From an uncultured Rhodobacterales bacterium (GTDB lineage Bacteria; Pseudomonadota; Alphaproteobacteria; Rhodobacterales; CAZPXZ01), in assembly GCA_964586735.1 (NCBI GenBank), contig CAZPIN010000105.1, positions 1-62,686 of the forward strand: DNA of 62,686 bases, in the 5' to 3' direction. The number at the start of each line of letters is the position of its first letter. The stretch's first letter is position 1. The notes under the pieces are model-generated. The model saw only the letters and a program-made list of their open reading frames with translations. It made no database searches and was not told where the DNA came from. A program made the translations under genes and the position numbers. Of the stretch, positions 6,815 through 62,686 are shown one piece after another.

Positions 6815-7450
6815 CTGCGCGACCACGGACACCATCGTCGAAGATTGCCGCAGAGGCAGCCTTCACCTGCGCGAAGCGTGAAACGCGAACGCCATTGGCG
6901 GGAGGGAAGCGCCTGCTGGGCGTAGCAGCTTGGCGAAGCTGGAGACGGGGCCATTCGCAACGGATCTGTCGATGGCAGACGCGGTGATGGTAAAGCCGTA
7001 CTGTGCGGCGCATCCCAATGGCGCGTGGAGAAATGACGGGATATTCGTAGCGCCGCTGCTAGCGGCAGCCGTCATCACCATCGTCGCGGCCACCTGTCAG
7101 CCCAGGGCCAGCCTGTGGCGCCACCGAGCATCCTCGCCGCGTACGAGGCGCATCAGGCCTGAGCCCAGCGGGAGGGTACGGGCTGGAAGTAGATACGAGG
7201 CAGCCGAAGGGCGGGGCCGGGACCGAAGTGGCGGGCAGCGCTATACTGGTGACGCTGGGGCGGCTGGCAGCAGCGCATGCGGGCGCAGGTCGACTGGGTG
7301 CATCCGAGTCGGTGGCCGGAAGCCGTACAGGAACTCGTGGCACACGGCGGTTGCCTAGGACGGCGAGGTGGTGCTGCTGCCGAGGCTTGCCGGCGGGTAG
7401 AATGGCGCATGGCGCGCCGCAAAGAGGAGAAAAGCGCATGCTGAAAGCTT

Positions 7451-7460
7451 CCCCCCCCCC
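7451..7460 (+). repeat. Homopolymeric poly-C tract (10 C) between two SD/ATG pairs upstream of Calx-beta autotransporter 2
   Basis: Sequence: aaaGAGGAGaaaagcgcATG(7438)ctgaaagctt-C10(7451-7460)-gactAAGGAGGGtgtcATG(7477). With 10 C the two ATGs are in frame. Confidence 0.9.
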
Positions 7461-7476
7461 GACTAAGGAGGGTGTC

Positions 7477-16662: not shown

Positions 16663-17052
16663 GGGACGGGCTGCCTATGCTGGCGGCCGCCTGCACCGAT
16701 GCGAACGCTGTTGAGGGGATACACCGTACGGTGAACCTGGACTCGTAGAGAGAGAGCTAAGCATGACTCCATCGGCGGGGGATGTCCGCCTTCGTTGAGG
16801 AGCGGCCTGCGGGCGAAGCTGGGATGAGCGCTTGACCGGTCGAACTTGTCGATGGCAGATGCTATGATGGTCGAGATGCCCAACCCACGATATCCCAATA
16901 GCTCACGGGATTGCGGTTTCACAGTGATATGGCAGTCATCACTAGACATCCAGAAATTTCGAGGTTGACCACGTGAAGCAAACTGTGCTAGAAGTACCCG
17001 ACAACCAGACTGTCTAGACAGTCTACCCACCACATCTTAGGGAGTGGCGAGA

Positions 17053-22724: not shown

Positions 22725-25700
22725 ATGATTACGCATCTGACAGCTCGGATAGCGGGCGGACTGTTGTCAGTCCGAGCGTGCGCGAGAACAACTGCCGCGG
22801 CAGTGGCATCCGTACTGGGGCATAGGTGGAGAACGGGGCTATTGCGGGCTACCGCGACGGCCGTATTGGCTTTTTGGGCAGTGATGGCGAGCTGGATTCC
22901 CGCGTCTGCGCAGGGCGCGTCGGGAATTGATATCTATTACATTACTACACTGCATGTTTGGGTGGAGCCAGGGCCGTTGCCTACCATTCCAGCAGGTCCC
23001 GATGGGTTGGATCTCGTAGCAGACCGGTCACATCCGGAATATGATAACAATGATGTAATTAAGAATGTGGATGATTTCTGTGGTGAAATTCCCGGAGATG
23101 ACGATGACAATACAATTGTTGAATATCCAGAGCCTCTGAAGCCGAATGATCCAAATGACATACAGGACGCTGAACGTATAAACATGAGTTTCAGAATATG
23201 TGCCGCATGGGAAACGCATGACTGCCCGGATGGCTTGAATTGCTCGTTCCTTACGACGGACGGGGCTAATCCGGGAAATATCGATATCACATATAGATTT
23301 CATGTTCCTTCGTCAAGTCAATGGCTTTGGACTGAGTATGGATCTGACTATACTGACTGGCCAAGGCAAGAGGAGTGCTCGAATGACCAATCTGGATCCA
23401 GATCTTTGGAGCTTGATGATAATTTGGCTGCTAATAATGTCCGTGATGGCAAAACATGGAGAACGATAAATTGTTATATAATTGGAGACGGCTTTTACGA
23501 GGAAGAGGAACACATTCAGCTTGAAATTCTGTCAGCGGATTGCGACAATTGTAATGGGCCATTATCTAGCAACCATCGGTGGGCCGAAATGCCAAGCGAG
23601 GCGATACTTGGAGGAAAAAGAAGATTAAGGCGCGATATCATCAACCGGGATCCGCCGCCGGTTGCGTACATTTTTTACGACGTCCCCGACAGCGACACGG
23701 TCGCGACGGGCTGGGGTGGACCGGAGGGCGCCGCTGGGGAAGAAACCGAGTACACAATCACGCTGCTTTTAACAGGCGAAACGCAATTGAGCATGTTTTT
23801 CAGCGTTGCAGTCGAAGACAGCCTGGAGGACGGGGGTTCATACACCAGCGGCGATGATTTGGGCTATCAAATTATTGGCCTGGACGATCTCGAGGGGGAT
23901 AATGGACGATTGTGTCTCGGCCCGTGCGGGGGTAAAATTGTTTCAAGATCGACCTTCTCCATTCTTGTAAAGGGAGACAATTGGGCGGAGCCAACGCAGT
24001 ACATTACCTTCAGGCTTGAAAATCCCTTGTGGGGTGTAATTTCAAGACGTTACCCCAGTCTCTCAATAGCGATTGAGAATGACGATTCGCTGCATTTTTC
24101 CCTTAGGAAGTCATCCGACCCGGTTGTGGAGGGAGATCAAGGCGACACAAGTCGAGTGGGGGTGACCGTAGCGCTGGCCTCGTTGGTGCAGGGGTCATTT
24201 ACCATGGACTACGCGATTTCGGGTACGGCGACAAACGGCGTGGACTATCAGCAGGTACTGCCAACTGGAACCATTGCGTTTGGCGGCGACGGTAATCTGG
24301 ACCCAGACCAGGTGCTGAGCCATACGCTATACTTTGACATAATACCCGATTTGCTAGTCGAAACAGACGAAACCATAGTCCTTTCGTTTGGCAATGTACA
24401 GTGTACCAGCTGTGTGGACGGCCCGGTAGGGCGCGTAACCTTCCCCGGCTGGGAGGCTGTGCGGAACGTCCAGGGGGCTACTATAATTACCATCGAGGAG
24501 GACGATTTTCCCGAAATTACCATAATTAGCCCCAGTCTGTTGGAGGGAGGGCCAGACAACAGCCTTTTGCTTGACTTCATCGTTGAACTATCGGCCGTTT
24601 CGCCGCTGGATATCGTCGTACGGTACAGCATAGAGGACGGCACGGCCACCGCAGGGAGAGACTACGTAGCGACGGATGGCGATCTACTGTTCACCGCAGG
24701 CCAAACGCTAAACCACGTTTCGGTGACCATCAACGGCGACGACGTCTACGAGCTTGACGAGACCATCACTGCCACGCTGTCCAACCCGGTGGCGGCGATT
24801 TTCCCCGGTGGCGCGTCCACCGTAACTGCCAGAGGCGTTATCGTCAACGACGACCCCCCACCAGTCATTACGCTTACCCAGCCCGCCAGCGTCACCGAAG
24901 GCGACACCGGCGAAACGGATATGGTGTTCACCATCACCAAGACGGGCCTGACGGAGGTGGACTCGACCGTAACCTATTCGCTGACGGGCTCTGCGGTAAG
25001 CGGCGTCGACTACACGCCGCATGACAGGTTCAACCTGACCATCCCGGCGTCGGTCTCCAGCATTCCGCTTACAGTTGTCGTTCTTGGAGACAATCTGGCA
25101 GAACCCAACGAAACCGTGGACCTGACGCTGGCGCTTCCGTATCACGCACACTTCATGGCGGGTAGCTCCACCACATCCACGACTGGGACCATCATCGACG
25201 ACGAGGTTCTATTGCTCGCCATTGATTCGCCGCAGATGCTGGAGGGCAACGCGGGCGACAGTACAGTTCTTGAGTTTACCGTGACGATGAGCGCGCGGGC
25301 CGACCAGGTCGTCTCCGTGGACTACTTTCTTACCCACGAGGGCGGCACAGCGACCGAGGGCGCCGACTACTCGATTCAATTCGACCCGCTGGTGTTCAGC
25401 CCGGGCGAAACCGTACGCAGAATCCCCGTAACGCTCGTTGGCGATTCCGTGGGCGAAGCCAACGAGACCATCGAGATTGATCTTCTTTTCCCGACCTGTA
25501 CGGCCTGCGCGGCGGCCGGCGTGATTCAGCCTGAAATAGAGACCGGACTGGGCGTCGCCACCATCATCAATGACGACGGTACTCTTCTGTCCATCGATTC
25601 GCCAAGCGTGGACGAGGGCAACGCGGGACAGCGCATGCTGACCTTTACCGTGTCGGTTGGCACAGCTCCGACCAAAACCATCCGCGTCCAGTACGCCGTA

Positions 25701-28700
25701 ACCGGAGGCACTGCATCGGTCGCTGGCGGCGACTACATCGTGCCGACTGGCAACACGTTGACCTTTCCTGCCAATGTGTCCACCCCGCGCACCATTCAGG
25801 TTGCCGTATTCGGCGACAGCATCTACGAGGCCGACGAGACCCTGACCGTGTCCCTGAGTACCAGCGAACCTGAATCCGAAGTGGCGCTTTTCCCAGCCAC
25901 GGGTACCGGCACCATCAGAAACGACGACGTTCCGCCTTTAGTCACCATCGATTCGCCGATACCGATCACCGAGGGCGACACCGGATCCAAGAGCCTGGAG
26001 TTTCTGGTCACCAAGTCGGGTCCGACGGAGCTGGACGCCACCATCGAGGTAGCCATTCTGGGCACGGCGACCAGCCCCTCCGACTACGTGGATGTCGTCG
26101 GCGGTTCCTCGCTGACCTTCGGTCCAGCCGAGACCACAAAGGCCATCACCTTAACCGTAATCGGAGACAGTGTGGCGGAGCCGGACGAAACTGTCATCGT
26201 ATCCCTGTCCGGTCTGGTTCACGCCGCCTTCACCGGCGGTGGTTCAACGCTATCAGGACGTACCAGTATCCAAAACGACGATGGCCTCCAATTCGCCATA
26301 GATTCGCCAAGCATCGACGAGGGCCAAAGCGGCACCACCCACAGGATGACCTTCACCGTCACGCTGGACGCGGAGTTCTCCCAGCAGACATCCGTTTCCT
26401 ACAGCGTCACGGGTGGCACCGCCACGGCCGGCGAGGACTACCAGACGCTGTCTCCCGGCACCCTGACTTTCGCGCCGGCCGTGACGTCGCAGACCATTGA
26501 CGTCACGGTTGTCGGCGACTTGCAGATCGAAGGAAGCGAGACGGTCATCGTCACACTGGCCAATCCAACCTGCACCAGCTGCGCCGGTCTTGGCGTCGCG
26601 CTGGCCACCATTTCCCCTGACCATGGCGTCGGTACGGGCACAATCGTGGGGGACGATCAGCCTCTTCTCTCCATTGACTCCCCGTCGGTGATGGAGGGCG
26701 ACAGCGGACAGGTCAGTACGCTGGAGTTCACAGTCACCATGACTCAGCGGTGGCACAGCCAGGTCTCGGTCGACTACAGCGTGACCGGCGGCACGGCGAC
26801 GGCGGGAGAGGATTACCGTACGGTCGCCGACGGCACGCTGATTTTTGTCGTTAACACCGACACCCAGTCCACGATCTCCGTCGACGTGCTCGGCGACGGC
26901 GACGGCGAGCGCGACGAAACCCTCGTTGTCACTCTCTCCAACCCCATCAACGCCACCATCATGTCCGGCGTCGGCACCGGTACCATCCGCTCCGATGACC
27001 GCAGCCTCTCCATCCGCGCCGCCACCCCCAGTGTAACGGAAGGCGAAGACCGGCCTCTGGAGTTCCTCGTTGAAATGGATCCCCCCGCTGACAGCCGGCT
27101 GATGGTCGATTTCGAGGTCACGCCGCAGTCCACGGCCACCGTCGGTGCGGACTTCGAATCCCCGTCTTTCACCCAGCTGGTCTTTGAAAGAGACGAGTCA
27201 TCCAAGTCCATCATGGTGATGGTCAAGGACGACTCTCTGGAGGAAGACGAGGAGTTCGTCGAGATCGCCCTCGTCGACTCGGTGGAGTCCGCCAGCATCA
27301 CCACGGCTACGGCAAGGGGCGCCATCATTCCGCGCCGGCCCGCCGGGGGATCTGTGCTGTCGGTCGCCCGGCTGGGACCAACATTGGGGTCCGACGGGAC
27401 GGGACCCACCACCGACATGATTTTCCGCTTCGATCCGCCCCGCAACGTCGCCACTTCGATTACCTATATCGTGCGGCTCAGCGATCCCGGCGTGACTGGA
27501 AGCGGCAGGCTGGGCATCCCCGTCACCGTTACCGTTCCAGCCGACCAGAGAGAGTTCAGGGATACCTACTCTTTAGGACCCGCCTTCAATCTGGAGCACG
27601 TCGGCCTTCTCGTCGTCGAGGTAGTCTCGGTGTCCGTCGAAGGTGAAACCGAGCCAGATCCCCTAGTTAACATCAGAGGCTTGCAGGACTCCAGCGGCAG
27701 GGCATTGGTCGGGCACAACGGCGAGGAGGCGGGCAGGCTCGCGGTCGGCATGCGCTACGTCCTCTCAGGCGCCGGGCGAGCGGTGGCCGCCAGCCTCGTC
27801 GAGACGGTCTGGGAGCGGGCCGAGGCGTACCGCTATGGCCGGCCGGAGTCCACCGCCACAGTCGGCGGCCGCCGCGTCGACGTCGCCGCTTTTGCCCATG
27901 GAGACGATCCAGGCCGTGCCGCGGGCGAAGTCGCCCGGCTGCTTGGCATCGAGACGTCGGCGCCTTCGGCGCGGCGTGGCAACAGCCACTCCGGTTCCGG
28001 CTTCGGCGCCTGGCGCGACTGGGCTGGACTGCCCGGCGATGACCTTGCCCGCGGCACCCGTTTTTCGCTGACTTCTGGCGACCGCGGCGTCGGTATGTCC
28101 ACTGTTTGGGGCCGCGGGGACTTCCGCTCGTTCGAAAACGTCTCAGACAACGACGACCTGACCGTGGAAGGCGACACCGATACGCTGCTTCTCGGCTTTG
28201 ACCACCGCTACAGAAAGAACCGCCTTGTCGGCGTAACCCTGAGCCGGGCGTCGGGCGATGTCAGCTACGTCTTTGGCACCAAGGACGAGGGATCCATGAC
28301 GGTCAGCCTGACCACCCTTGCGCCGTGGTTCCACCGCGCCTCCGACACTGGCGGAGAGGCATGGGGAATCGCGGGCATTGGCATGGGTACGGCGGGGGTC
28401 GAGGAAAGCGGCGTCTCTGTCGACACCGACGTCCGGATGCTGATGCTGGCATTCGGCCTGCGTGGCAAAGACGTGCTAATAGGCAATTCCATGGCCGCCC
28501 TGAAGGCGGACGCCTTCATGGCGTCTCTGTCGGCGGACGCGGCTGACGGAGACCTGCGGGTCGCCAAGGCGTCCGCCGACACGCATCGCCTGCGGCTTGC
28601 GCTCGAACTCGCCGGCGGCTGGAATTTCGAAAGCGGCGGCGAGTTCGCCGGCCTTCTGGATGTAGGAGCGCGCTCCGACGGCGGCGACGGGGCTAGCGGC

Positions 28701-29207
28701 TCCGGCATGGACGCCATTCTGGGTTTCCGCATGACATCTGGTGGCGGAGGTCTCGAGATGACCGGCAAGACAGGGATCCTGCTCTCCCATAGCCAGGAAG
28801 GCTACGACGAGTCTTTCATGAGCTTCGCCCTTGCTTTGGACCCAAGCGGCGAGGGGCGGGGAATCCAATTGTCCTTGGAGCCCGCCCTGAACGCCGCAGC
28901 CATACGAGGCAGCGGATACCAGTGGAACGCGGCTCCGGATGGCAAAAGGGATGCGCCTTTGACCTCGGGAGCCTCCCTGCGCTCGCGGCTGGGCTACGGG
29001 TTAAGGGTAATGGACGACTGGGCGCTGGCAACGGCTTACGGCCAGGTCGAAAGCGGAGAGGACCAGTCCAGCCTGCGTCTGGGTGCCGAGCTGCGCGGCC
29101 TGAACCGGCGGGAGGGCGGATTCACCATCGAGGTCTATGGCCAGCGCGAGGCGGCGGCCTTGCAACCTGACGATGCGCTCATGCTGGAGGGCCGCTTTGG
29201 CATATAG
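22725..29207 (+). CDS. Giant Calx-beta-repeat autotransporter-like outer-membrane protein (paralog 3, divergent, 2160 aa)
   Basis: Long N-terminal leader ending LAFWAVMASWIPASA/QG. A low-GC, Cys-rich head (nt ~22930-24090) is followed by about 10 Calx-beta modules (e.g. LLSIDSPSVDEGNAG...VQYAVTGGTASVAGGDYIVPTGNTLTF...VAVFGDSIYEADETLTVSLS). The C-terminal barrel (nt ~28057-29204; VWGRGDFRSF, GFDHRY, RLGYGL) ends LMLEGRFGI. Confidence 0.85.
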   Translation: MITHLTARIAGGLLSVRACARTTAAAVASVLGHRWRTGLLRATATAVLAFWAVMASWIPASAQGASGIDIYYITTLHVWVEPGPLPTIPAGPDGLDLVADRSHPEYDNNDVIKNVDDFCGEIPGDDDDNTIVEYPEPLKPNDPNDIQDAERINMSFRICAAWETHDCPDGLNCSFLTTDGANPGNIDITYRFHVPSSSQWLWTEYGSDYTDWPRQEECSNDQSGSRSLELDDNLAANNVRDGKTWRTINCYIIGDGFYEEEEHIQLEILSADCDNCNGPLSSNHRWAEMPSEAILGGKRRLRRDIINRDPPPVAYIFYDVPDSDTVATGWGGPEGAAGEETEYTITLLLTGETQLSMFFSVAVEDSLEDGGSYTSGDDLGYQIIGLDDLEGDNGRLCLGPCGGKIVSRSTFSILVKGDNWAEPTQYITFRLENPLWGVISRRYPSLSIAIENDDSLHFSLRKSSDPVVEGDQGDTSRVGVTVALASLVQGSFTMDYAISGTATNGVDYQQVLPTGTIAFGGDGNLDPDQVLSHTLYFDIIPDLLVETDETIVLSFGNVQCTSCVDGPVGRVTFPGWEAVRNVQGATIITIEEDDFPEITIISPSLLEGGPDNSLLLDFIVELSAVSPLDIVVRYSIEDGTATAGRDYVATDGDLLFTAGQTLNHVSVTINGDDVYELDETITATLSNPVAAIFPGGASTVTARGVIVNDDPPPVITLTQPASVTEGDTGETDMVFTITKTGLTEVDSTVTYSLTGSAVSGVDYTPHDRFNLTIPASVSSIPLTVVVLGDNLAEPNETVDLTLALPYHAHFMAGSSTTSTTGTIIDDEVLLLAIDSPQMLEGNAGDSTVLEFTVTMSARADQVVSVDYFLTHEGGTATEGADYSIQFDPLVFSPGETVRRIPVTLVGDSVGEANETIEIDLLFPTCTACAAAGVIQPEIETGLGVATIINDDGTLLSIDSPSVDEGNAGQRMLTFTVSVGTAPTKTIRVQYAVTGGTASVAGGDYIVPTGNTLTFPANVSTPRTIQVAVFGDSIYEADETLTVSLSTSEPESEVALFPATGTGTIRNDDVPPLVTIDSPIPITEGDTGSKSLEFLVTKSGPTELDATIEVAILGTATSPSDYVDVVGGSSLTFGPAETTKAITLTVIGDSVAEPDETVIVSLSGLVHAAFTGGGSTLSGRTSIQNDDGLQFAIDSPSIDEGQSGTTHRMTFTVTLDAEFSQQTSVSYSVTGGTATAGEDYQTLSPGTLTFAPAVTSQTIDVTVVGDLQIEGSETVIVTLANPTCTSCAGLGVALATISPDHGVGTGTIVGDDQPLLSIDSPSVMEGDSGQVSTLEFTVTMTQRWHSQVSVDYSVTGGTATAGEDYRTVADGTLIFVVNTDTQSTISVDVLGDGDGERDETLVVTLSNPINATIMSGVGTGTIRSDDRSLSIRAATPSVTEGEDRPLEFLVEMDPPADSRLMVDFEVTPQSTATVGADFESPSFTQLVFERDESSKSIMVMVKDDSLEEDEEFVEIALVDSVESASITTATARGAIIPRRPAGGSVLSVARLGPTLGSDGTGPTTDMIFRFDPPRNVATSITYIVRLSDPGVTGSGRLGIPVTVTVPADQREFRDTYSLGPAFNLEHVGLLVVEVVSVSVEGETEPDPLVNIRGLQDSSGRALVGHNGEEAGRLAVGMRYVLSGAGRAVAASLVETVWERAEAYRYGRPESTATVGGRRVDVAAFAHGDDPGRAAGEVARLLGIETSAPSARRGNSHSGSGFGAWRDWAGLPGDDLARGTRFSLTSGDRGVGMSTVWGRGDFRSFENVSDNDDLTVEGDTDTLLLGFDHRYRKNRLVGVTLSRASGDVSYVFGTKDEGSMTVSLTTLAPWFHRASDTGGEAWGIAGIGMGTAGVEESGVSVDTDVRMLMLAFGLRGKDVLIGNSMAALKADAFMASLSADAADGDLRVAKASADTHRLRLALELAGGWNFESGGEFAGLLDVGARSDGGDGASGSGMDAILGFRMTSGGGGLEMTGKTGILLSHSQEGYDESFMSFALALDPSGEGRGIQLSLEPALNAAAIRGSGYQWNAAPDGKRDAPLTSGASLRSRLGYGLRVMDDWALATAYGQVESGEDQSSLRLGAELRGLNRREGGFTIEVYGQREAAALQPDDALMLEGRFGI

Positions 29208-29334: not shown

Positions 29335-29368
29335 ACGGCGGCGCCGCCGAATGTCCGAATGCCGCCGT
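29335..29368. terminator. GC-rich stem-loop between convergent genes (autotransporter 3 and Rpn-like gene); possible bidirectional terminator
   Basis: ACGGCGGC (29335-29342) pairs with GCCGCCGT (29361-29368) across an 18-nt loop. An alternative perfect palindrome CGGCGGCGCCGCCG lies at 29336-29349. No U-tract. Confidence 0.25.
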
Positions 29369-30393
29369 CAGCCTTTGCCGTGCCCGTTGAAGACCCGGTC
29401 AATCGAGTTGCTGTCAAAAGACTGCATGAACCAGTCTTCGATCTCCTGCGCGTCAGCGGCGGCGACCCGTTCCCGATACTGCTCAGGCAGCGGCCCGAAT
29501 CTGCGCCGGAGAACGTTCGTCAGCACTTCGGCCCTGCCTCTGGCTCTTTCTCTGGCTTCGCCCTTGGCCTCGCCTTCGGCCCAGTATCTTTCCACCATGT
29601 TCGCCATGATCCTTCCTCCATCCTTCGGGTAGGCTTGGCGAAGCGCCCGCTCCACCATCCTTCTGGTTACTTCATCATACTCGCTTTCGAAGAACGCCGC
29701 AAGCGGCTGCAGAACATCAGAGTCCTTTCCGACCATCCTGAGGATCGTCACCATCAAGTGCATGATGTTCAGGTCCTTCCGCCTGCTGACGCAGGAGTAG
29801 TACAGTGCCAGCAGGATGGCCGTAACCTCGCTGTTGCCGCAGTACAGATGTTCCGGCCTCAGCCGGGAGAAGTCCACGATATGGATGTGGATGTTCAGCA
29901 CGCGCTTGCCCAGCCGGGCGATACCCGGCAGCCACCAGTCAAGAGACAACGGAAATTTCCACGGCCTGTCCCCGGTGTAGAGGAGAATGCCGCAGATTGC
30001 GGCGTGCGCGCGGATGCCCAGTACGCACTCGAGCAGGGCGCAGACCACGTAGCCTATCAGCTGCGCAGGCGCCTCCCTGGACGGGGACGACTTCGCCTCC
30101 AGCACGCTCTCAACGAGGGGCATGCCGTCGGGGTTCGTTTCCATCCGGAAGCGGGCGTCGCATTCGCTGGGGCGCAGGACCTGGCTGATGAATTTTGTGG
30201 GCAGGATCTCGGCGGGGCCGTCGGCCAGCGCGCCGGCAAACTCGATGGGACCGAAGACCCTTGCAAAGACGCCAGCCCGAGTCGGGTCTCTGAACCCGAT
30301 TCGGATGAGGCTGTCGCGGGCTTGGTAGGTTTTGCGCTTCTCAGCGCCTCGGTCGTTCTCTCGGTGGCCTGACGCGCCGGTCTGTGTGTGCAT
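29368..30393 (-). CDS. Rpn/YhgA-like PD-(D/E)XK recombination-promoting nuclease / putative transposase with DUF4351-like C-terminal module (341 aa)
   Basis: Nuclease-core-like strings are ECDARFRME...VESVLEAKSS...AQLIGYV and ICGILLYTGDRPW. The C-terminus WAEGEAKGEARERARGRAEVLTNVLRRRFGPLPEQYRERVAAADAQEIEDWF...SNSIDRVF matches the E-x-x-G repeats plus helical DUF4351 pattern. Confidence 0.75.
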   Translation of the reverse strand: MHTQTGASGHRENDRGAEKRKTYQARDSLIRIGFRDPTRAGVFARVFGPIEFAGALADGPAEILPTKFISQVLRPSECDARFRMETNPDGMPLVESVLEAKSSPSREAPAQLIGYVVCALLECVLGIRAHAAICGILLYTGDRPWKFPLSLDWWLPGIARLGKRVLNIHIHIVDFSRLRPEHLYCGNSEVTAILLALYYSCVSRRKDLNIMHLMVTILRMVGKDSDVLQPLAAFFESEYDEVTRRMVERALRQAYPKDGGRIMANMVERYWAEGEAKGEARERARGRAEVLTNVLRRRFGPLPEQYRERVAAADAQEIEDWFMQSFDSNSIDRVFNGHGKG

Positions 30394-34581: not shown

Positions 34582-34845
34582 GGCCGTCCGCCCTCGACGG
34601 CCTGCTGCGGATTGCGGCTCGTTTTGTGGCAGAGACTGCCGCGCTGGTGGCAGTTCCCGGGTCTCTGCGCTTCAGCACCCTCGATACACGGCATGGCCAG
34701 CGCGTCGATTTCTACAGTGCCTTCCGTCCGCATTGCCCAGCGGGGCGGGCGCATTGCCAAACGCCATACAAGGGTGAAGCCGCTTGCGCCGCTGCCGCAG
34801 CCCGTCTATGCTGACATGAAAGAGATCCCCCTGGAGAAACCTGAT

Positions 34846-36462
34846 ATGGCAAAGACAGCGCTGCCGATTGGAGTACAGTCGTTCGGAACGATTCGCCGGC
34901 AAGGACTTCGCTATGTAGACAAGACAGGCTTTGCCAAACGGCTGGCGGATAGGGGGAAGTGGTACTTTCTTTCCCGTCCCAGGCGGTTTGGCAAGAGCCT
35001 GTTCATAAGCACGCTGAAAGAGCTGTTCGAAGGCAACGAGAAGCTGTTCCGGGGGCTGGCCATACATGGGCAATGGGACTGGAGCGTACGCTATCCCGTC
35101 ATACGGCTTAGCTTTGGAGCGGGTAACTACGCGGGGAAAGGAGTGCTCCTCAGCCGGATGCACAAAATTCTCGATGACGCGGCCGTAGCTGCTGGCCTGT
35201 CGCGGTGGGCAGTCATGGCTCGTAGGATTGTTCGAAATGCCGCGCGCAGCTTTGGTAGAGTCGGTTCACATGAATTGTCTGCACCGGATGACCGCTTCAC
35301 GGATCTAATTCACAGTCTCAGGAGGAAGTTCGGCCGACCCGTAGTCGTGCTCGTGGACGAATACGACAAGCCGGTACTTGCTGCCGTCGACAATCCAGAG
35401 GTCGCCCGGGAAAACCGAGATATGCTGCAGAGCTTCTATGCGGTGCTGAAGGAAGAGGATGATAACATTCATTTCTGCTTCGTGACGGGAGTGTCGCGGT
35501 TCTCGAAGGTCAGCCTGTTCTCGGGAGCGAACCAGCTTCACGATATTACGCTGGTTCCAGAGTATTCCGCCATTTGCGGCTATACGGAATCGGATATCGA
35601 CGAGGTGTTCTCCGAGGAGCTGGCCGGACTTGACCGCGACAAGGTGCGCGAATGGTACAATGGATACAATTGGCGTGGCGAAGAAAGCGTATACAACCCG
35701 TACGGCATTCTGCTGCTGCTGGAGAACCGGGAGTTCAAAGCATGGTGGTTTTCTACCGGCACTCCAACTTTTCTTATCGATGTCATGAAACAGCGAGGCA
35801 TGTTTCCGATCATGCTGGAGGACGTGGTGGTTTCTGACGGCGATTTGCTGGTATCTGACATTAACAGCATATCCGCCGAGGCGCTGCTGTTTCAGTCTGG
35901 ATACATGACGGTTGTCGATGAAGAATTGGCGGGAGATCTGTCGCTGTACACGTTGGGCTACCCAAACCGTGAAGTAAGGCAGGCCCTTAACGAAAGCCTC
36001 CTCATGGACCTGTTTCCACAGCCTCCCGCAGCTCTAGCGAAGAACAGGCAGAACCTGATCAGATATCTTGAAAACGGAGATATGGATAAGCTGAAAGGCG
36101 TTCTTCATTCCATGTTTGCCGGCATACCGCATCAGTGGCATATGAGCTCCGCGGCGGCGAACTATGAAGCCTATTTTTCAAGCGTGGTGTACGGATACTT
36201 TCTTGGATGGGGACTGGACGTTCGAGTCGAGGATTCGACAAGCGAAGGGAGAATTGACCTCGCCGTGGTTGCCTCTGCGCACATCTACCTGTTTGAGTTC
36301 AAAGTGGTGAATGGAAGCCCCGAAGGAACGGCAATCGAGCAGCTTCGGGACAGGAACTACGCCGACAAGTACAGGCTTCATGGAAAGCCCATTCATCTTG
36401 TCGGGGTAGAATTCAGCAGGGAGACGAGGAATCTGCAGGTGTTCAATGCGGAACCTGCCTGA
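34846..36462 (+). CDS. AAA-ATPase-like / PDDEXK_9-type predicted ATPase-nuclease (copy 1, 538 aa)
   Basis: ATG 34846 has GGAGAA 8 nt upstream and aligns with the start of the 49596 paralog. N-terminal strings: YVDKTGF, FLSRPRRFGKSLF (P-loop-like), VVVLVDEYDKP (Walker-B-like). C-terminal PD-(D/E)XK-like string: GRIDLAVV...HIYLFEFKV. Confidence 0.8.
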   Translation: MAKTALPIGVQSFGTIRRQGLRYVDKTGFAKRLADRGKWYFLSRPRRFGKSLFISTLKELFEGNEKLFRGLAIHGQWDWSVRYPVIRLSFGAGNYAGKGVLLSRMHKILDDAAVAAGLSRWAVMARRIVRNAARSFGRVGSHELSAPDDRFTDLIHSLRRKFGRPVVVLVDEYDKPVLAAVDNPEVARENRDMLQSFYAVLKEEDDNIHFCFVTGVSRFSKVSLFSGANQLHDITLVPEYSAICGYTESDIDEVFSEELAGLDRDKVREWYNGYNWRGEESVYNPYGILLLLENREFKAWWFSTGTPTFLIDVMKQRGMFPIMLEDVVVSDGDLLVSDINSISAEALLFQSGYMTVVDEELAGDLSLYTLGYPNREVRQALNESLLMDLFPQPPAALAKNRQNLIRYLENGDMDKLKGVLHSMFAGIPHQWHMSSAAANYEAYFSSVVYGYFLGWGLDVRVEDSTSEGRIDLAVVASAHIYLFEFKVVNGSPEGTAIEQLRDRNYADKYRLHGKPIHLVGVEFSRETRNLQVFNAEPA

Positions 36463-39410: not shown

Positions 39411-39445
39411 TCTTGGTCAGTAACGCTAGCGGGTACTAGGCAAGG

Positions 39446-39958
39446 TTACTCGCTGGCGTCGCCGTTGCCGCTTCCGTTGAACACCGACTTCAGGTCAGGG
39501 GCTATGTGCAACCTGTCAAGCCACACCAATATCTGGCCCGACGACGCGTCGCTCACCCGGGCTGCAAGATGGTCCGGGACGCTCTGAAACCGCTCTTCGG
39601 CAGCCTTCAGAAAAGCATTCCGATGGGCCATCCTCAGCATTTCCCCATCCTTGAACGTCTCCACTCCTCGCTTGATCTCTCTTGCCAATGCGACCCAGGC
39701 AAACTGCAATACTGGTTGACCGCTGGCCACACTGTCGCCACTTCCGCTGAACACCGACTCCAAGTTTGAAGCTTCCTGCAACATGCCATGCCAGACATCG
39801 AGCTGGTCCGGCGATGCACCGCGCACCCGGATCACCAGATGCTCCGGGATGCTTGTTTTGAATTGCTTCTCGGCAGCCTCCAGAAAAGCCTTCTGGCGTC
39901 CTGTGACATATCCATAAACGTAACCAAGATTCGTCAGGTGCCTAAAGTACGGGCCCAT
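39446..39958 (-). CDS. Free-standing protein made of two tandem DUF4351-like (Rpn C-terminal) modules
   Basis: Module 1: FLEAAEKQFKTSIPEHLVIRVRGASPDQLDVWHGMLQEASNLESVFSGSGDSVAS. Module 2: FLKAAEERFQSVPDHLAARVSDASSGQILVWLDRLHIAPDLKSVFNGSGNGDASE. Both are collinear with the C-terminus of the adjacent frameshifted Rpn gene. ATG 39958 follows TGGAGG; the track start is TTG 39997. Confidence 0.6.
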   Translation of the reverse strand: MGPYFRHLTNLGYVYGYVTGRQKAFLEAAEKQFKTSIPEHLVIRVRGASPDQLDVWHGMLQEASNLESVFSGSGDSVASGQPVLQFAWVALAREIKRGVETFKDGEMLRMAHRNAFLKAAEERFQSVPDHLAARVSDASSGQILVWLDRLHIAPDLKSVFNGSGNGDASE

Positions 39959-40074
39959 GACTGCCTCCAAACCTTCTTGCTTCAGCTCCTTCTCCAAAAC
40001 CGCCGCGATGCGATGCTGGACTCTGCGAACTGGCGCTGACTTGCCAGAGCGGCCCCGGCAAACCGCGAAACCGG

Positions 40075-41024
40075 CTATCCGCTGGCATCGCCGTTGCCGC
40101 TTCCGTTGAACACCGACTCCAGATCGGAAGCCTCGTACAGACTGTCAAGCCAGGCATCGATCTGGTCCGATGATGCGCCGCGCGCCTGGGCCGCCAGATG
40201 CTCCGGGACGCGCTGAAACCGCCGCTCAGCGGCCCGCAGAAAAACCTCCGTTTGGCCCTCGGCGCGGCCCTCGCTCCTCAGCTGTTCCTTAATCACGTCC
40301 ATGGCTCTGTTCGCCTCCTCCTGGTTCTTCCCTCTTGCCAGAACTGCCAGCCACCGCTCCACCGGCACGCCCAGCACTTCGACAACCTCTCCAACAATAT
40401 AGCCCCTCATCTCCTCATTGTGAAGCTCTGCCGCCTCGCCCAGATAGGCAAGGCCCCTGTCGTCCAGCTCTCGCCCGCCCCAGCCAACCGTAAACGGCAG
40501 TATCAGCCCACCAGCCTCCGGGTCCTCGCAAAGGTCATCCAGGCCAATCTCCCCGAAGTCGAGTTCGCCAATTGTCAGGGTGTTCATCGCGGCCTTCTTC
40601 TCCTCCTCGGTGAGGCCGGCCTGTCGTCCAGATCTTTCGGAGGATGCTTCGACGCACCTCGGTGCAGGGCGAGCACGCCGCACATGATTGGCATCTTGCC
40701 TTCTGTAGACTTTCCATCCTCCACCAGCACGTACGCCTTGGCGAAGACGTAGCGCGCCAGCTGCAGCTTCGCGTTCTTCGACGGATAGGACTTGTGCTCC
40801 CATACGATGAGCAGGAAGCGGCCGTCGGTCAGCTTCGCAAGGACCACCAGGTCAGCCTCGCCGAAGCCCACGATTATGGGGTTGATCGGCTGGAGGCCAA
40901 ATTCCGTGCAGAGCTGCAGGTAGAATACCGGGGCGAGGCTCAGCCGGGCCAGCTCCCAGAGTACCTTCCGGTAGTTGCCCAGCCTGCGGAAATTGGCATC
41001 CTGCCGATTGTTGGGGTCGTGCAT
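40075..41024 (-). pseudogene. Rpn/YhgA-like PD-(D/E)XK nuclease gene split by a frameshift near 40610-40635 (or a sequencing error)
   Basis: The N-terminal part lies in ORF 40584..41144. The likely start is ATG 41024 after AAGGGAG, giving MHDPNNRQDANFRRLGNY...EADLVVLAKL...LLIVWEHKSYP...ARYV. The C-terminal part lies in a different frame, ORF 40075..40803 (...LTIGELDFGEIGLDDL...EGRAEGQTEVFLRAAERRFQRVPEHLAAQARGASSDQIDAWLDSLYEASDLESVFNGSGNGDASG). The two ORFs overlap by 220 nt. Confidence 0.6.
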
Positions 41025-41170
41025 GGCGATTGCTCCCTTGTCTGCGTGGAGACGCTGCCAGCCAGCCTCTCCGGATTGATGGTTCATGCAAGGTAGGCAT
41101 GCGGCGGGGAATTGCAAACGGCGCAATTGCGCAGCACCATGCAATGCGCTCCGTACGACAAATCCTCTCC

Positions 41171-52399: not shown

Positions 52400-55300
52400 T
52401 TAAAGGGCAACGACCGTGATATCAGGATCGATGAAGATTATGCCATCTGTTCCCTGATACCCGTTTCGCCCCGCTTCGTCTGTTTCCTTGTCACCCGTGG
52501 CCCCGCTAAGGCCACTTAGTGTTACGCGATCGTTGCCGTCTCCATCAATAATTAGCTTATAGTTCAATGCGCTGCCCGCAAGTACTGTCAAGTCCTCGTC
52601 GCTAATTGTGATCTTCGTTGAACCAATTCTAAATCCGTCGTTCCCTGCCAGCTCCATCTTGGTGATTCCGGTTAGCAACGCTAGGTCAAAATCGCTCAAG
52701 GTCAACGTTACAGTATTTCCGTCAATGAACTCCAACCGATCCGGTGTACCGTCGTTTGATCCACCCTCATTGTCATATATTCTAATGTCCATAATGCCGT
52801 CCATTGTAGTATCCCCTGTTCCGTCCATATCCTCGTCTAGTGGGCCTTCGGTTGCAAGGTCAAATTCTTGCCGTTCCGCTGTTGAATCAAAGTTCGGATC
52901 GAACCACCTGCGCACCGTCCTGCCAAAGAAGCTGAAAGTGGTGACATAGTCCACTTCGATGCCGGAAGGCGATAGATTATCGTCCAGGCTGAGTTTAACT
53001 CTCCTTCGATCCACTGGCGTTACGCCATCGCTCTCAAATGTCTCCAAAGAAAATCTCATGAGCGGTTCGGTGCCCTCAAATCTAACAGTGTCGGTGATAA
53101 ACCTGGATACACCGGGAATGACGTACTCATTGGCGACAAAGTCGTCAATCAATGTTTCCAGCATTTCTCTGCTTATGTCAGTATACCTTAGTGGAAACGG
53201 GAAACGAAATGCCCGTACTGCCTGCCAAACCAAATGATGGTCCACATCCGCGGCGTTTACGCCATGCCGCTCGAAAACCGATTCATGGTTGTACGCAGTC
53301 CCGTCGAACGCGTCCCCGGCCCGTATAGCGCTTCGATTACCGTCAATTACCTCCAAAACATCCAATACTCGAATTACCTCCACGCCTGAATCAACGTATA
53401 CTGTTCCATCAGAGCCTTGATACTCGTCCCGGCCGCTGGAGTCAGTACCCCCAGTCGCCACTATCCCACCTCCCAAGTCCAACACGCCGCCATCTGCGCC
53501 ATGAAAAACAATGGTATAGCCCGATCTGCTGCCAGCCAGGGCGGTCAGCGTATCGTCAGACAGCCTGAATGTTGAATCAACATCTTCACCGGAGAAGTGC
53601 ACATTCCCAATTCCTGCAAAGTCACCAGTCTCCGCTTCTTTGAGATTGAAAAAGTGAGGCGCATCTCTGTAGAAGTGAATCGCGTCAGGCGAACCATCTC
53701 CCAGTTCGTCATCCACTCCATATATGCGGGTTCCTTCGTCATCATAGAAATACTGCAGCTCGCGTACTAGTGTTTCATTTGTCCCGCTGTACACTAGTTC
53801 CCTGTCAATCTGCCCGTTTGAATTGAAGTGCCGTACCGCCACGTGATCCGTGCCGTTTAGCATACCGTCATCACCACGCTCCTCGTATCGTTCTACGACA
53901 GCGAGGTATCCCGCTGCATCATACGTAGTTTGTCGCCATGTCTCAAATGTTCCGTCTTCATCGTTGTCTGTACGTACTGTTTCAGTTTCTCTCGTGTTGG
54001 CCTGGACTCTGTAATTCGTTTCACGGCGAACCTCTAGTGTTCCGTTGTTGTCGTAATCTACTTCAAAAAGAACTTCATCGCCGTTTATGTTTAGTTCGCG
54101 CTTGTCAGAATGGTCTACTGTACCGTCATCTGCGGTTCCCATGTCCATATTCGAACCGCCAAGTCCATCATCGTATTCAATATGCAACTCCGATACGGCC
54201 ATACCATCTGGCGCATAGATCGTACGCAAACGCCTTTCAAAGTGTCCGTCGTCGTCCATATCAGTAACGTCATGCCTTTCCGTAAGTATGTCATCCTCCG
54301 TCCCATTGTCGCTTGTCGTACTGTATCGCAATTCTACCCGGCCTTCGGGTGTGCCGTCTCCGTCGACATCCGTGTAGGTAATTGTGGAAACAGCTTCATT
54401 CGTACCATTGCTGTCCATGTCAGTCTCCGTTCGATCCGGTCTACCATCCAGATTATCATCAAACACCGCATATTCAGAGGCCAATGTGCTGTCGTTCAGG
54501 GTAAGCCAAACGACAAAATTTTCCGAACTGCCTGCATCGTCGCTGTCAATCCCGAGCATGAGGGTCAAAGCGCCTTCTTCACCTTGGGAAACTGATGCGG
54601 ACACAATCGCGCCGCCTGTCGGTACAAAACGGTCTACAGCGTCCGTCAACGAGTCAACTCTTGTTTGGTTGAAGGTTGAGTAGAGGTTGAGAAGCACAAC
54701 CGACTCTTCGCGGCTATCCGTCTCCAAGCTGTCTAGAATAGCGTCCAGTGCAGCAGGGGTACCCAGTACCGAAACCGCCTGCGCGACTAGAACTTTTCCG
54801 TTTCGTCCCTGGTATTCGTCTTTTCCATCGATAACTCTACCCGTCGCGTATATGCCTCCATTGAAGGTCACGGAGTCGTTAGCCTCGCCATCAATAGCAA
54901 GTTCATAGCCGCTCTCGCCGTTTGCCATTGTCGTCAGATGAGTGTCATCCAGAGTAAGTCTGGTAACCCCTTCAGAAGACGAGTCCGTACCGGTGACCTG
55001 GTCCCCCGACAGCTTAATGGCATCAATGCCTGCAAACTCAACTGCGATTTCAGCAGTTACAACCACCTCGGTGCGATCGGGCACGGTCGGAGCGGGAGCC
55101 TGCGGGGGAGCAACTCCATCGGGGAACTTAACGCTGTCCAGAGTCCCATCTTCATCGCTGGTACCAGATCCGTCACGCAGGATGAAATCCGTTGTTCCGT
55201 CCTCATTAATATCGCGGTCAATCGATTCGTCAATACCATCATAGTCGCGATCTGCTTCAATGGTATCAATGGTTCCATTTCCGTCGCGATCCCGATGTAC

Positions 55301-60982: not shown

Positions 60983-61364
60983 TCGCGCACCTCGTTTGCC
61001 AGTGGCTTCGTTGCTACCAGACACCGCTGCGGCTGGGGTTCCAATACTGAGGCTTGACCCAAAAAGCCGCCCGCAGCCGTGCGGACATTCTATCCGCCGA
61101 TTTGTTCGAGATGGGCCTTCGCAGCTCTAGGCCAAGCGCAGCCGCTGCCACACGCCATTTGCAGGACAATGTACTGATCGTTCGAAGCTGGCGGCTTGGT
61201 AGGAGGCCACCCTCACCCTGAGGGGGGTGCGCTTGTGCCCGCCGTCCGTCCACGCTAGACACGACCCGCAACGTTCGCTTGGCGGTCTTCCAGATTGGCG
61301 CTCGTGGACACAGGCCGGACGGGCATCTGTTGTGCCTGCTCCGAGGCAGCCAAGGGAGCGCATC

Positions 61365-62444
61365 ATGCAGGACGAAGCCAGCGAATCGAACCCTCAGGAA
61401 GTGGCCAGCAAGGACATCGAGTCTAGGCTGATCCACTTCCCGTATGACAGCATCCTGAGCTTGATGTTCGATGACGAGCAGTGTTGTACCGACTTTGTTT
61501 TGGACCACGGCGACAAGGACTTGGTCCGTCATCTGGCTGGGGGTCCCGCCTCGACTAAGCCCACCAGGCAGGTCGGCAATGGGCTGAAGCGCGCAGAAGC
61601 CGATTCGCGGTTTAGGCTGGCGACGACGGATGAGGAGATGTCCGACGTAGAAGTCACGGTGGAGTTTGATTCGGGCGGGAACGACACCAAGGCGTTCAAG
61701 AAGACGCTGGGCTATGTGCTCAGGGGAGTGCTTCGTTGGCTGAGAAGCGGTGAGGCCCCTCTCGCCTCCAGCGCGTTTCTCGTAAGCACGGGAGAAAGGC
61801 CGTATTCAGGCCCTCGGTCACTTGGAGAATTGGTGCCCGGGCTCGACCGCATGGGGGATTCCGCTCTGAATTTCATAATAAAAATTCTGGATTTTTCCCA
61901 TGTAGAGCCGAAAGATCTGGTAAGCAAGAACCAGAAGAATTCGGTCATTCTCCTGACTGTGTACTTCGCCGTTGCCTCCCGGCGCGCTAGAGCAGACTTT
62001 GATAGCTGGATGGACTTCATCTTCAGCCAGCCGAATGTCCGAGACGACGTACTGGCAGTGGTTGTGCTGTTCATGAAGTTCCTGTATGGTGACGCGTATC
62101 AGGCGGTGATGAAGGCTAAGCTCCGTTCCGCCCGACCCTATGACTGGAGGAATATCATGGATGCTGCAATCAGGGAAATCGTGGAAGCCGTAGGGCCAGA
62201 GTACGAGGCCCGCGGAGAGGCCCGCGGGGAGGCCCGCGGGGAGGCCCGCGGGGAGGCCCGCGGGGAGGCAAAGGGGAGGTCCAAGATACTCACCCATTCG
62301 CTGGAAAGCGTGTTTGGTGCCCTGCCGAACGGCTACAAGCAGCGCATCAGCGACGCCAGCGAGGAGGACATCCTGCGCTGGAACGTCAGGCTTCACGGGG
62401 CCACCTCGCTCGACCAGGTCTTCGACGACTCCGCTGATGACTGA
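61365..62444 (+). CDS. Rpn/YhgA-like PD-(D/E)XK family protein with (EARG)5 repeat and DUF4351-like C-terminal module (359 aa)
   Basis: The ORF track starts at 61227; ATG 61365 follows AAGGGAG (61352-61358). Core-like strings: AEADSRFRL...VEVTVEFDSG...LGYVLRG and FLVSTGERPYSGPRSL. The C-terminus is EYEARGEARGEARGEARGEARGEAKGRSKILTHSLESVFGALPNGYKQRISDASEEDILRWNVRLHGATSLDQVF. Confidence 0.75.
   Translation: MQDEASESNPQEVASKDIESRLIHFPYDSILSLMFDDEQCCTDFVLDHGDKDLVRHLAGGPASTKPTRQVGNGLKRAEADSRFRLATTDEEMSDVEVTVEFDSGGNDTKAFKKTLGYVLRGVLRWLRSGEAPLASSAFLVSTGERPYSGPRSLGELVPGLDRMGDSALNFIIKILDFSHVEPKDLVSKNQKNSVILLTVYFAVASRRARADFDSWMDFIFSQPNVRDDVLAVVVLFMKFLYGDAYQAVMKAKLRSARPYDWRNIMDAAIREIVEAVGPEYEARGEARGEARGEARGEARGEAKGRSKILTHSLESVFGALPNGYKQRISDASEEDILRWNVRLHGATSLDQVFDDSADD
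62205..62276 (+). repeat. In-frame 12-bp tandem repeat GAGGCCCGCGGR x5 plus one variant unit (encodes EARG x5, EAKG)
   Basis: Units start at 62205, 62217, 62229, 62241 and 62253, with the variant gaggcaaagggg at 62265. The duplicated copy downstream (62532-62591) has only 4 perfect units plus the variant. Confidence 0.92.
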
Positions 62445-62477
62445 CCGGCTGCTGCTGGGGCCAGCGGTGACTGGAGA

Positions 62478-62686
62478 ATGATCATGGATGCTGCAATAAG
62501 GGAAATCGTAGAGGCCGTAGGGCCGGAATACGAGGCCCGCGGGGAGGCCCGCGGAGAGGCCCGCGGAGAGGCCCGCGGGGAGGCAAAGGGGAGGTCCAAG
62601 ATACTCACCCATTCGCTGGAAAGCGTGTTTGGTGCCCTGCCGAACGGCTACAAGCAGCGCATCAGCGACGCCAGCGAGGAGGACAT
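62478..62686 (+). CDS. Partial (3'-truncated by window) free-standing DUF4351-like ORF: duplicated Rpn C-terminal module with its own ATG
   Basis: ATG ATC ATG GAT GCT... translates to MIMDAAIREIVEAVGPEYEARGEARGEARGEARGEAKGRSKILTHSLESVFGALPNGYKQRISDASEED. It stays open to the window end. It is absent from the ORF track because no stop codon is reached. I see no convincing SD. Confidence 0.5.
   Translation, partial: MIMDAAIREIVEAVGPEYEARGEARGEARGEARGEAKGRSKILTHSLESVFGALPNGYKQRISDASEED

Follow-up and report, generated by a model that had tools for sequence, protein, structure and literature searches.

An Rpn-family gene with a frameshifted nuclease and a triplicated 3' unit in a sponge-associated Rhodobacterales bacterium

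In the Rpn (YhgA-like) family, the long forms (RpnL), DNA endonucleases of the PD-(D/E)XK type, are toxic nucleases (Zhong et al., PNAS 2023, PMC10400941). RpnS, the C-terminal domain, is produced from an internal start on an internal transcript and binds and blocks the cognate RpnL; in the rpn genes of E. coli, an internal transcription start serves the short form. Specificity of RpnS for its cognate partner depends on the number of four-residue repeats in its first helix, and by HHpred RpnS is akin to motifs of the helix-turn-helix (HTH) type. A plasmid-borne Rpn protects from phages, and selection against RpnL expressed alone is strong. RpnS is also encoded separately (RpnSs), with a DUF4351 annotation in some species, as in ypaA after rpnE and rpnCSs after rpnC; each RpnSs arose from its own upstream gene, and YpaA is synthesized (all PMC10400941). 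Here we describe a 62,686-nucleotide (nt) stretch of DNA of an uncultured Rhodobacterales bacterium from a sponge metagenome (GenBank assembly GCA_964586735.1, contig CAZPIN010000105.1, positions 1 to 62,686; hereafter the window). At its main locus, a minus-strand rpn-like gene is followed by a single open reading frame (ORF), designated ORF-C, that joins two further copies of the gene's C-terminal module. The evidence leaves us in little doubt that the gene belongs to the Rpn family, that its frameshift is real and that its 3' unit has been triplicated.

The E. coli locus rpnE-ypaA (L007) offers a direct comparison. There, rpnE (6905-7804) is followed 12 nt on and in frame by ypaA (7817-8002), a copy of the rpnE tail with one extra four-residue repeat, and rpnE is annotated as an inactive nuclease-like protein. 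Both loci consist of an rpn gene and, on the same strand, a duplicate of that gene's C-terminal unit provided with a separate start, in both the copy clusters with the tail of the upstream gene, and the inactive annotation of RpnE parallels the dead nuclease described here. The main locus differs from rpnE-ypaA in that it has two extra copies rather than one, fused as a single two-module protein. These copies are old (synonymous divergence, dS, ~0.55; 45-55% protein identity), not near-identical; the first junction contains a 116-nt spacer, and the nuclease is frameshifted. The tail is of the DUF4351 type, whereas the tails of E. coli RpnE and YpaA have no DUF4351 Pfam match. Another rpn locus, the third in the window (61365-62686), matches rpnE-ypaA closely, down to a one-repeat difference of 4 amino acids.

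ORF-C shares with the described RpnSs genes its position directly downstream on the same strand and its derivation from the C-terminal unit of the upstream gene; the described examples have one S module per protein, whereas ORF-C has two. The main locus resembles RpnA, RpnB and RpnP2 in combining a Transposase_31 PD-(D/E)XK N-terminal domain with a small helical C-terminal domain, in a candidate internal promoter and a candidate internal start with a Shine-Dalgarno sequence, and, in relatives and the third rpn gene of the window, in four-residue repeats within the first helix. Unlike them, the window gene belongs to a very divergent clade, has the catalytic motif E-H-K instead of E-H-Q and a broken long form, and lies outside any obvious defense island.

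A further parallel is found in orphan or surplus antitoxins of type II systems (the anti-addiction idea), where a gene of the antitoxin kind is retained although the toxin it belonged to is no longer active. Such an orphan could neutralize related toxins, whether incoming or encoded at another place in the genome, as might the product considered here. In the present case, by contrast, the putative antitoxin is a tandem-fused copy of the toxin's own domain, and cross-neutralization is hypothetical.

The rpn-like gene and its three C-terminal modules

ORF calling on the minus strand yields three frames (40584..41144; 40075..40803, in a different frame; 39446..39997). The rpn-like gene, whose start at ATG 41024 was placed by homology, extends to 40075 and is a divergent member of the Rpn family with a PD-(D/E)XK nuclease and a DUF4351-type tail. 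Its nuclease part matches a local nuclease hidden Markov model (HMM) with an independent E value of 9e-28 and contains the PD-(D/E)XK core as HD at residues 2-3, GEAD58 and WE76-H-K78-S. HD, D58 and E76-H-K78 are in register with E. coli RpnE, and GEAD58 and WE76-H-K78-S align with SD and IEHQS. The catalytic residues of the nuclease part are thus present.

Because direct Pfam scores of the window's own pieces fall below threshold, family membership was established through homologues and profiles. A word-indexed search of 5.8 billion proteins returned only 4 homologues. Two full-length homologues are encoded by single ORFs, P0001 (332 amino acids, 68% identical) and P0002 (315 amino acids, 60% identical), and these score 22.6 and 22.8 bits, respectively, with Transposase_31, passing its threshold. 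When 1.84 billion representatives were searched exhaustively with a clade profile, 785 proteins matched at E <=1e-3; among the best 144 of these, Transposase_31 is found in 98 (best 1e-58) and DUF4351 in 97 (best 3e-25). Alignment by hhalign of a profile of the three modules with a profile of 21 Pfam-positive DUF4351 proteins spans 63 columns with a probability of 98.1% and E 9.5e-14. Neither the ORFs nor their homologues matched anything in NCBIfam or PADLOC scans, and the clade is absent from clade-profile scans of GTDB representative genomes and JGI metagenomes.

Translation of 40560-40720 in three frames reveals the break in the gene. The first frame reads …ALHRGASKHPPKDLDD and then runs through RPASPRRRRRPR to a stop, and the second frame carries on as …AGLTEEEKKAAMNTL…. 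In the alignment, the sequence GAC GAC AG GCC GGC of the window stands opposite ...DLDD-L-AGLT... of P0001 and P0002, the two homologues with an intact frame. The long nuclease form of the window gene is thus interrupted by a 1-nt deletion at 40621/40622. The stop that ends the out-of-frame tail, TGA 40586-40584, overlaps ATG 40587-40585 (ATGA) of a 170-amino acid C-terminal ORF reported by gene callers (P0008). Programmed frameshifting was considered and ruled out: GAC GAC AGG contains no slippery X XXY YYZ heptamer, and every homologue is in frame.

Reads were checked as Logan unitigs from three sponge-metagenome runs (X1, X2 and X3). Across 40483-40846, unitigs of the independent runs X1 and X3 show 0 differences and 0 gaps relative to the window, and a haplotype in X2 with 4 single-nucleotide polymorphisms (SNPs) over the same interval is likewise free of indels. 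Since these exact unitigs and the indel-free haplotype carry the break, the frameshift belongs to the reads themselves and did not arise during assembly.

Three direct DNA repeats of 186 nt lie at 39444-39629, 39714-39899 (60%) and 40073-40258 (75%), and 3 occurrences of the tail motif TCGGTGTTCARCGGAAGYGGCRAC were counted where 0 would be expected. The three modules encoded there are 45-55% identical at the protein level and all end in SVF(N/S)GSG. Tandem Repeats Finder did not detect the array; its copies are too diverged and its period too long. Alignment across the junctions shows that DNA homology passes beyond the module ends on both sides. Junction 1-2 reads …GCCAGCGGA TAG CCGGTTTCGCGGTTTGCCGGGGCCGCTCTGGCAAG and junction 2-3 reads …GCCAGCGGT CAA CCAGTATTGCAGTTTGCCTGGGTCGCATTGGCAAG, and at both the homology continues into sequence related to the parent PVERWLAVLAR (40365 onward). 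The duplicated unit is therefore ~290 nt long, larger than the 59-position DUF4351 model. As judged from this alignment, the two junctions have one origin, and the TAG stop of rpn is the homologue of the CAA Gln codon at the second junction, which explains why modules 2 and 3 are fused. The first ~115 nt of unit 2, upstream of its Met, have decayed and lost their frame, leaving the 116-nt spacer; from ATG 39958 on, the frame is open.

In clustering, all three modules fall in one clade together with the gene's own tail and its P0002 homologue. By junctions and clustering alike, the three modules derive from tandem duplication of the ~290-nt 3' unit of the rpn-like gene. By the Nei-Gojobori method, dS between the window modules is ~0.54-0.61 and the ratio of nonsynonymous to synonymous divergence (dN/dS) is 0.37-0.49, the extra-copy pair included. 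With dS at ~0.55 and dN/dS in this range, the copies are old and have been non-neutral for most of that time.

One local feature of the array stands apart. The last ~40 nt of units 1 and 3 (39449-39490 and 40078-40119; …SVFNGSGNGDAS) are the same at ~40/46 DNA positions, whereas the units overall are ~75% identical. This near-identity could reflect protein constraint, gene conversion or a link to a nearby duplication breakpoint.

A preliminary description of this DNA, made from its letters and ORFs, had anticipated much of this structure. It placed the gene at 41024-40075 and a separate ORF fusing modules 2 and 3 at 39958..39446, as we find, and the frameshift that it suspected within 40600-40650 is the one located at 40621/40622 and seen in unitigs of all three runs. 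The nucleotide repeats and shared SVF(N/S)GSG ending that it noted correspond to the three 186-nt repeats and a motif present in every module. Its count of three tandem copies after the nuclease has to be lowered to two, as three is reached only if the nuclease's own tail is included. The proposed Rpn-type nuclease is supported by the Transposase_31 matches of P0001 and P0002 and of 98 of the best 144 profile matches, and the identity of the modules as Rpn C-terminal (DUF4351) domains by the hhalign result. The hmmscan that it suggested with DUF4351 and Transposase_31 gave a divided answer: the window's direct scores are sub-threshold, and homologues and profiles pass.

Table 1. Positions of the main locus, its parts and the other rpn genes in the window.
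Feature	Position	Strand	Description
rpn-like gene, N-terminal part	40623..41024	minus	134 codons in the original frame; AAGGGAG before ATG 41024
Frameshift	40621..40622	minus	AG in place of one Leu codon, a net 1-nt deletion
Out-of-frame tail	40584..40620	minus	…RPASPRRRRRPR, stop TGA 40586-40584
rpn-like gene, C-terminal part	40078..40620	minus	181 codons in the shifted frame; helical middle region and module 1
Sigma-70-like promoter match	40396..40424	minus	TTCACA-17-TATATT, 10/12; 94 nt upstream of the candidate internal start
Duplication unit 1 (parent copy)	40075..40365	minus	PVERWLAVLAR…SVFNGSGNGDASG and TAG stop
Candidate internal start	40300..40302	minus	Met of RAMDVIKEQL; GGAGGAGG 11-12 nt upstream
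Duplication unit 2	39716..40074	minus	Module 2 from ATG 39958; ends in CAA (Gln, 39718-39716)
Duplication unit 3	39446..39715	minus	PVLQFAWVALAR… module 3 … SVFNGSGNGDASE and TAA
ORF-C (P0015)	39446..39958	minus	170-amino acid two-module RpnSs-like gene; ATG with GGAGG 5 nt upstream
Second rpn gene	29368..30393	minus	Intact, 341 amino acids; Transposase_31 40.5 bits
Third rpn gene	61365..62444	plus	Tail copy from 62445, in frame directly past the stop, to 62686

ORF-C and its counterparts in relatives

ORF-C begins 116 nt past the rpn stop on the same strand, and a local module HMM places its modules at residues 22-74 and 113-164. An AlphaFold model of ORF-C (mean predicted local distance difference test score, pLDDT, 81.7; >90 inside the modules) predicts two helical modules, in each of which a long helix comes first and is accompanied by two or three short ones; the linker that connects the modules is of low confidence. 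The predicted fold is consistent with the published description of RpnAS. A structure prediction of P0001 from a 6-row alignment reached a pLDDT of 48 and was not used.

Within the parent gene, the internal ATG 40302 is a candidate start that would yield a 75-amino acid RpnS-like protein consisting of module 1. It has GGAGG upstream, and both the Met and the Shine-Dalgarno sequence are conserved in two relatives (L001 and L002). In the alignment, the start codon of ORF-C, ATG 39958, is the homologue of this internal Met of the parent (RAM-DVIKEQL). Promoter-like sites number 2, against 0.5 expected in shuffles, and represent matches to a consensus only; no terminator-like site was found at the locus. 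Four-residue repeats, which are clear in the relatives P0012, P0014 and P0034, are limited at the main locus to EGRA-EGQT in module 1. The helix of module 2 is 4 residues longer, as measured from the aligned Met to FL.

Module-only ORFs recur in the clade. Partner ORFs were assigned to the same contig as an rpn gene by identical contig sizes in nt and, in one case, by three codons in the Logan contig L130. All three clade homologues on contigs >20 kilobases (kb) share their contig with such an ORF, and two of the three ORFs have two modules. P0001 is accompanied by P0014 (197 amino acids, two modules) on a 77,558-nt contig, and P0011 by P0019 (176 amino acids, two modules) on a 64,603-nt contig. 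The third pair, on a 25,848-nt contig, is P0002 and P0005, a 116-amino acid protein comprising the end of module 2, the same linker (…PVLQFAWVALAREIKRG…) and module 3. In L130 (1055-1176), the first three codons of P0019 (ATG GAG ACG), preceded by GGAGGAG, lie 113 nt after the stop of P0011, a spacing close to the 116 nt of the window. This recurrence in 3/3 homologues is the reason why we read ORF-C as a real gene and not as junk. Since the partner rpn genes P0001, P0002 and P0011 are intact, the broken nuclease of the window is the exception among them. Two types of module, A and B, are combined differently: P0014 is A+B and accompanies the A-type P0001, P0019 is A+A and accompanies the B-type P0011, and ORF-C is B+B. 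The mixture, as read from these sequences, hints at shuffling or multi-specific partners.

Over 40483-40846, the three runs contain a second family of unitigs that differs from the window by 13 and 10 substitutions in two aligned blocks and has 4 extra bases in the middle stretch, which is too diverged for alignment. Its translation is exactly that of P0001 over block 1, and the residue-changing substitutions of block 2 also match P0001. In the three runs, the depth of the P0001-type copy and of the window copy is 6.8 and 7.1, 8.35 and 7.94, and 7.3 and 6.8, respectively. A P0001-type paralogue is probably present in the same genome as the window, as a fourth rpn locus.

Two close relatives carry lesions of their own. 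In L001 (P0003/P0006; 4660-4860), a 13-nt tandem duplication (ATGAGGCATTATT) shifts the frame, and an in-frame TAA lies just before the module. In L002 (P0004/P0007; 1160-1357), an in-frame TAG at codon 205 is common to two slightly different sequences. Such disruptions fit the reported counter-selection on RpnL without enough RpnS (PMC10400941) and fit plain decay as well.

Other rpn loci and genomic setting

A six-frame scan of the window with the local HMMs found two further rpn genes, bringing the number of rpn loci in 62.7 kb to three. The second gene has one DUF4351-like module with EAKG/EARE repeats. The third is followed by a 99%-identical copy of its tail that has 4 ARGE repeats instead of 5 and is cut by the window end. 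To judge from this arrangement, it is a fresh instance of the tail-duplication process seen at the main locus. Neither gene was included in the preliminary description, which had seen the main locus and missed these two, among them the one with the near-identical tail copy.

Similar arrays exist elsewhere. In two large ENA contigs, L003 (2735-6220) and L005 (1995-6183; ENA ERZ25070530), the C-terminal half of an intact 388-amino acid rpn gene is repeated 2-4 times in tandem after the gene. These copies are separate ORFs, 98-100% identical in units of 809-893 nt, and the sole difference between them is how many EGR(V/A) repeats they contain. In the vicinity are a HepT-like gene and IS1595 transposases.

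We also surveyed 120 loci from species-representative genomes, for whose selection a degenerate DNA pattern of the motif LLERRFGPLP was used. Of the module clusters in these loci, 62 are canonical (a nuclease and one module), 20 are orphan single modules and 10 are multi-module clusters with 2 or 3 modules on one strand. Among the multi-module clusters, L075, L127 and L055 combine an rpn gene with a second version of that gene's tail, in many cases with another number of repeats. Other arrangements among them include an rpn gene followed by the C-terminal half of another rpn type (L024 and L011) and tandem whole rpn genes (L125 and L098; L026 looks alike).

Modules also occur in series on proteins that lack the nuclease. 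Among the best 150 representative matches, 25 are nuclease-less proteins of <280 amino acids with 2-4 modules. In a Rhodopila metagenome-assembled genome (L032, 5380-6207), three modules share one 275-amino acid ORF, and no nuclease match is found on the same strand of this 8-kb locus. Nuclease-less DUF4351 proteins with 3 or 4 modules come from unrelated bacteria (L032, P0136 and P0155-P0158), one of them a 258-amino acid protein with four modules; our literature search found no paper on proteins of 3-4 tandem DUF4351 modules without a nuclease. On a Tara scaffold (L008, 2643-8267), a 208-amino acid two-module DUF4351 ORF lies directly upstream of a 512-amino acid rpn gene with two C-terminal modules, and Schlafen/AlbA_2-HATPase and CbiA/AAA_31 genes adjoin.

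The neighbors of the main locus are metabolic, comprising a dimethylglycine-dehydrogenase-like gene, an unannotated lipoprotein-like ORF and a molybdopterin oxidoreductase. Neighbor annotation and PADLOC identified no recognizable defense island around the locus, and tRNA and Rfam searches around it gave no match. A scan of viral contigs and a tblastn search of phages with the modules found no relatives and no sign of a phage-encoded decoy. A low-G+C island signal was dropped, because the locus has 59% G+C against 69% in its flanks, yet the whole window has 60%. Two genes away, 34612-36462(+) encodes a 616-amino acid protein with AAA-ATPase_like and PDDEXK_9 domains; its 3' end lies in a low-G+C patch (52-53% at 36000-36450). 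The window also contains giant ORFs of 1,800-3,100 amino acids (30-6785, 7228-16662 and 22725-29207 on the plus strand; also 17044-22479 and 52400-61024), three of which carry 6-9 Calx-beta repeats each. The giant ORFs probably encode surface or adhesion proteins of a sponge symbiont.

Origin of the array, alternative explanations and implications

According to the anatomy of the main locus, the ~290 nt at the 3' end that code for the RpnS part underwent two rounds of tandem duplication. The stop survived at the first junction, as did the internal start of the copy with its Shine-Dalgarno sequence, which gave rise to a separate downstream gene; at the second, a Gln codon replaced the stop, placing two RpnS modules in one 170-amino acid chain. 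A later 1-nt deletion broke the long nuclease form after residue 134. By analogy with E. coli, the remaining products, module 1 (from ATG 40302, or from the 170-amino acid ORF at 40587) and the two-module ORF-C, are most likely of the antitoxin type, and they would bind the C-terminal domain of a matching RpnL by helix-helix pairing. We lean toward the view that ORF-C is a true partner gene of the RpnSs type and has persisted beyond the loss of the toxin to which it belonged. Its expression, as well as binding and neutralization by its product, we infer from the same analogy.

Several observations weigh against this view. With Pfam, the N-terminal fragment of the window gene scores 17.9 bits with Transposase_31 (PF04754), below the gathering score of 21; module 1 scores 15.6 bits with DUF4351 (residues 178-229 of a 242-amino acid ORF), below 25; and ORF-C, taken as a 183-amino acid ORF, has no direct match to DUF4351 or any other Pfam family. 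The RpnAS structure was recovered neither by PDB sequence searches with clade profiles nor by a Foldseek search of the two-module model against the PDB, which gave no match at E <3; in the Foldseek search, the small RpnAS chain is probably out of reach of a query with two helical domains. No RNA run contains the locus. The tail of P0001, the paralogue that probably shares the genome, is A-type and only ~34% identical to the window modules, and the X1-X3 samples yielded no intact-frame B-type RpnL as a possible target of ORF-C. Between homologues, module 3 (60%) has changed more quickly than module 1 (78%). In the P0002 genome, P0005 starts inside module 2, and this module may be degraded there. 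Finally, the long form is disrupted in three of the five closest clade members, the window included, and the clade may simply be decaying.

Such decay is at the heart of the alternative that the locus is recombinational debris, that is, a dying rpn pseudogene whose extra modules are untranslated by-products of duplication, with the frame open through recency and G+C-rich DNA. The preliminary description had allowed for this outcome. The frameshift of the nuclease, the 13-nt duplication and in-frame TAA of L001, the in-frame TAG of L002 and the apparent N-terminal truncation of P0005 are all as expected of debris, long ORFs often arise by chance in the G+C-rich DNA here, and the locus is in no RNA run. 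Recency, however, is contradicted by the age of the copies (dS ~0.55), across which both modules and the fused junction have nevertheless stayed open with dN/dS of 0.37-0.49. Moreover, unit 2 has lost its frame before the Met and kept it after, a pattern expected if a Met-initiated product were under selection. The start and Shine-Dalgarno sequence of ORF-C are homologous to the internal start of the parent, and module-only ORFs accompany all three clade homologues on contigs >20 kb, twice with two modules. Simple debris is in our judgment unlikely.

The modules might instead be something other than antitoxins, such as HTH-like DNA-binding domains that regulate the rpn locus, or scaffolds. The relatedness of RpnS to HTH motifs by HHpred (PMC10400941) would agree with such a role, as would the abundance of proteins that have 2-4 modules and no nuclease (25 of the best 150 representative matches; L032 is one such case). 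The only experimental data on the domain, however, describe direct binding to, and inhibition of, the cognate RpnL (PMC10400941), and the modules of the main locus, L003, L005, L075 and the third window locus are all duplicates of the tail of the nuclease beside them. We regard a role of this kind as improbable.

Still less probable, and by a good distance from our preferred reading, is a functional split gene, in which a 146-amino acid nuclease core and a translationally coupled 170-amino acid C-terminal half (ATGA) would form an active, regulated nuclease. TGA 40586-40584 indeed overlaps ATG 40587-40585 with AGGAGGAGAAGAAGG upstream, the Met of ATG 40587 is conserved in 4/5 homologues, the D…E-x-K core is within the 134 retained residues, and the free-standing C-terminal halves of L003 and L005 begin at an equivalent boundary. 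Against this, every intact homologue is a single ORF, the break falls within Transposase_31 (near position 125 of the 203 in the profile) and leaves a 12-residue out-of-frame Arg/Pro tail, and the ATGA overlap results incidentally from a Met that lies in frame 15 codons past the lesion. That a sequencing or assembly artifact produced the frameshift or the repeat array is close to inconceivable even for a repeat-rich locus with many short unitigs in all three runs and a close paralogue in the same samples, given that X1 and X3 unitigs are identical over 40483-40846 and the 4-SNP haplotype of X2 is indel-free, that no near-identical contig has the extra base, that the paralogous contig translates exactly to P0001 and is therefore a different gene rather than a corrected version, and that unitigs also span 39460-39816 and 39788-40117.

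If ORF-C is an RpnSs-type partner gene, as we favor, its general type is not new. The idea in the preliminary description that the module was copied out as a free-standing gene holds, in that clustering and junctions trace the copies to the gene's own 3' end, and its summary of the E. coli work was accurate; its novelty shrinks, as separately encoded RpnS copies downstream of rpn have been published (PMC10400941), and the finding is incremental. What is new is that two RpnS modules are fused in a single protein encoded downstream, that this form recurs with mixed module types in a rare sponge-associated clade, and that the cognate nuclease is dead.

It is tempting to speculate that the two-module DUF4351 protein of this clade is a dedicated single-chain double antitoxin, with modules that can differ in specificity type (A+B in P0014, A+A in P0019, B+B in ORF-C), and cross-neutralizes several co-resident or incoming Rpn nucleases. 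We consider this doubtful. If true, the double antitoxin would constitute a networked or anti-addiction layer over a gene-within-gene system, able to outlast its own toxin, and the tail-copy arrays of L003 and L005, which differ in the number of 4-amino acid repeats, would represent a library of antitoxin specificities.

That Rpn systems act as toxin-antitoxin and anti-phage modules, with part of the toxin itself serving as antitoxin, was recognized only in 2023. The locus described here bears on how such co-evolving pairs diversify and on how an antitoxin escapes from its toxin gene. The 3' unit coding for the presumed antitoxin has been copied out repeatedly, with outcomes that range from fresh (99%, at the window end) to old and fused (at the main locus), and it can be concatenated to 2-4 modules and outlive the nuclease. 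Should the fused modules prove nonfunctional, the locus would illustrate clearly how a symbiont genome can lose a toxin and retain the antitoxin. If they are functional, they would provide a simple system in which to study RpnS specificity, cross-protection between paralogues and the role of dimerization.

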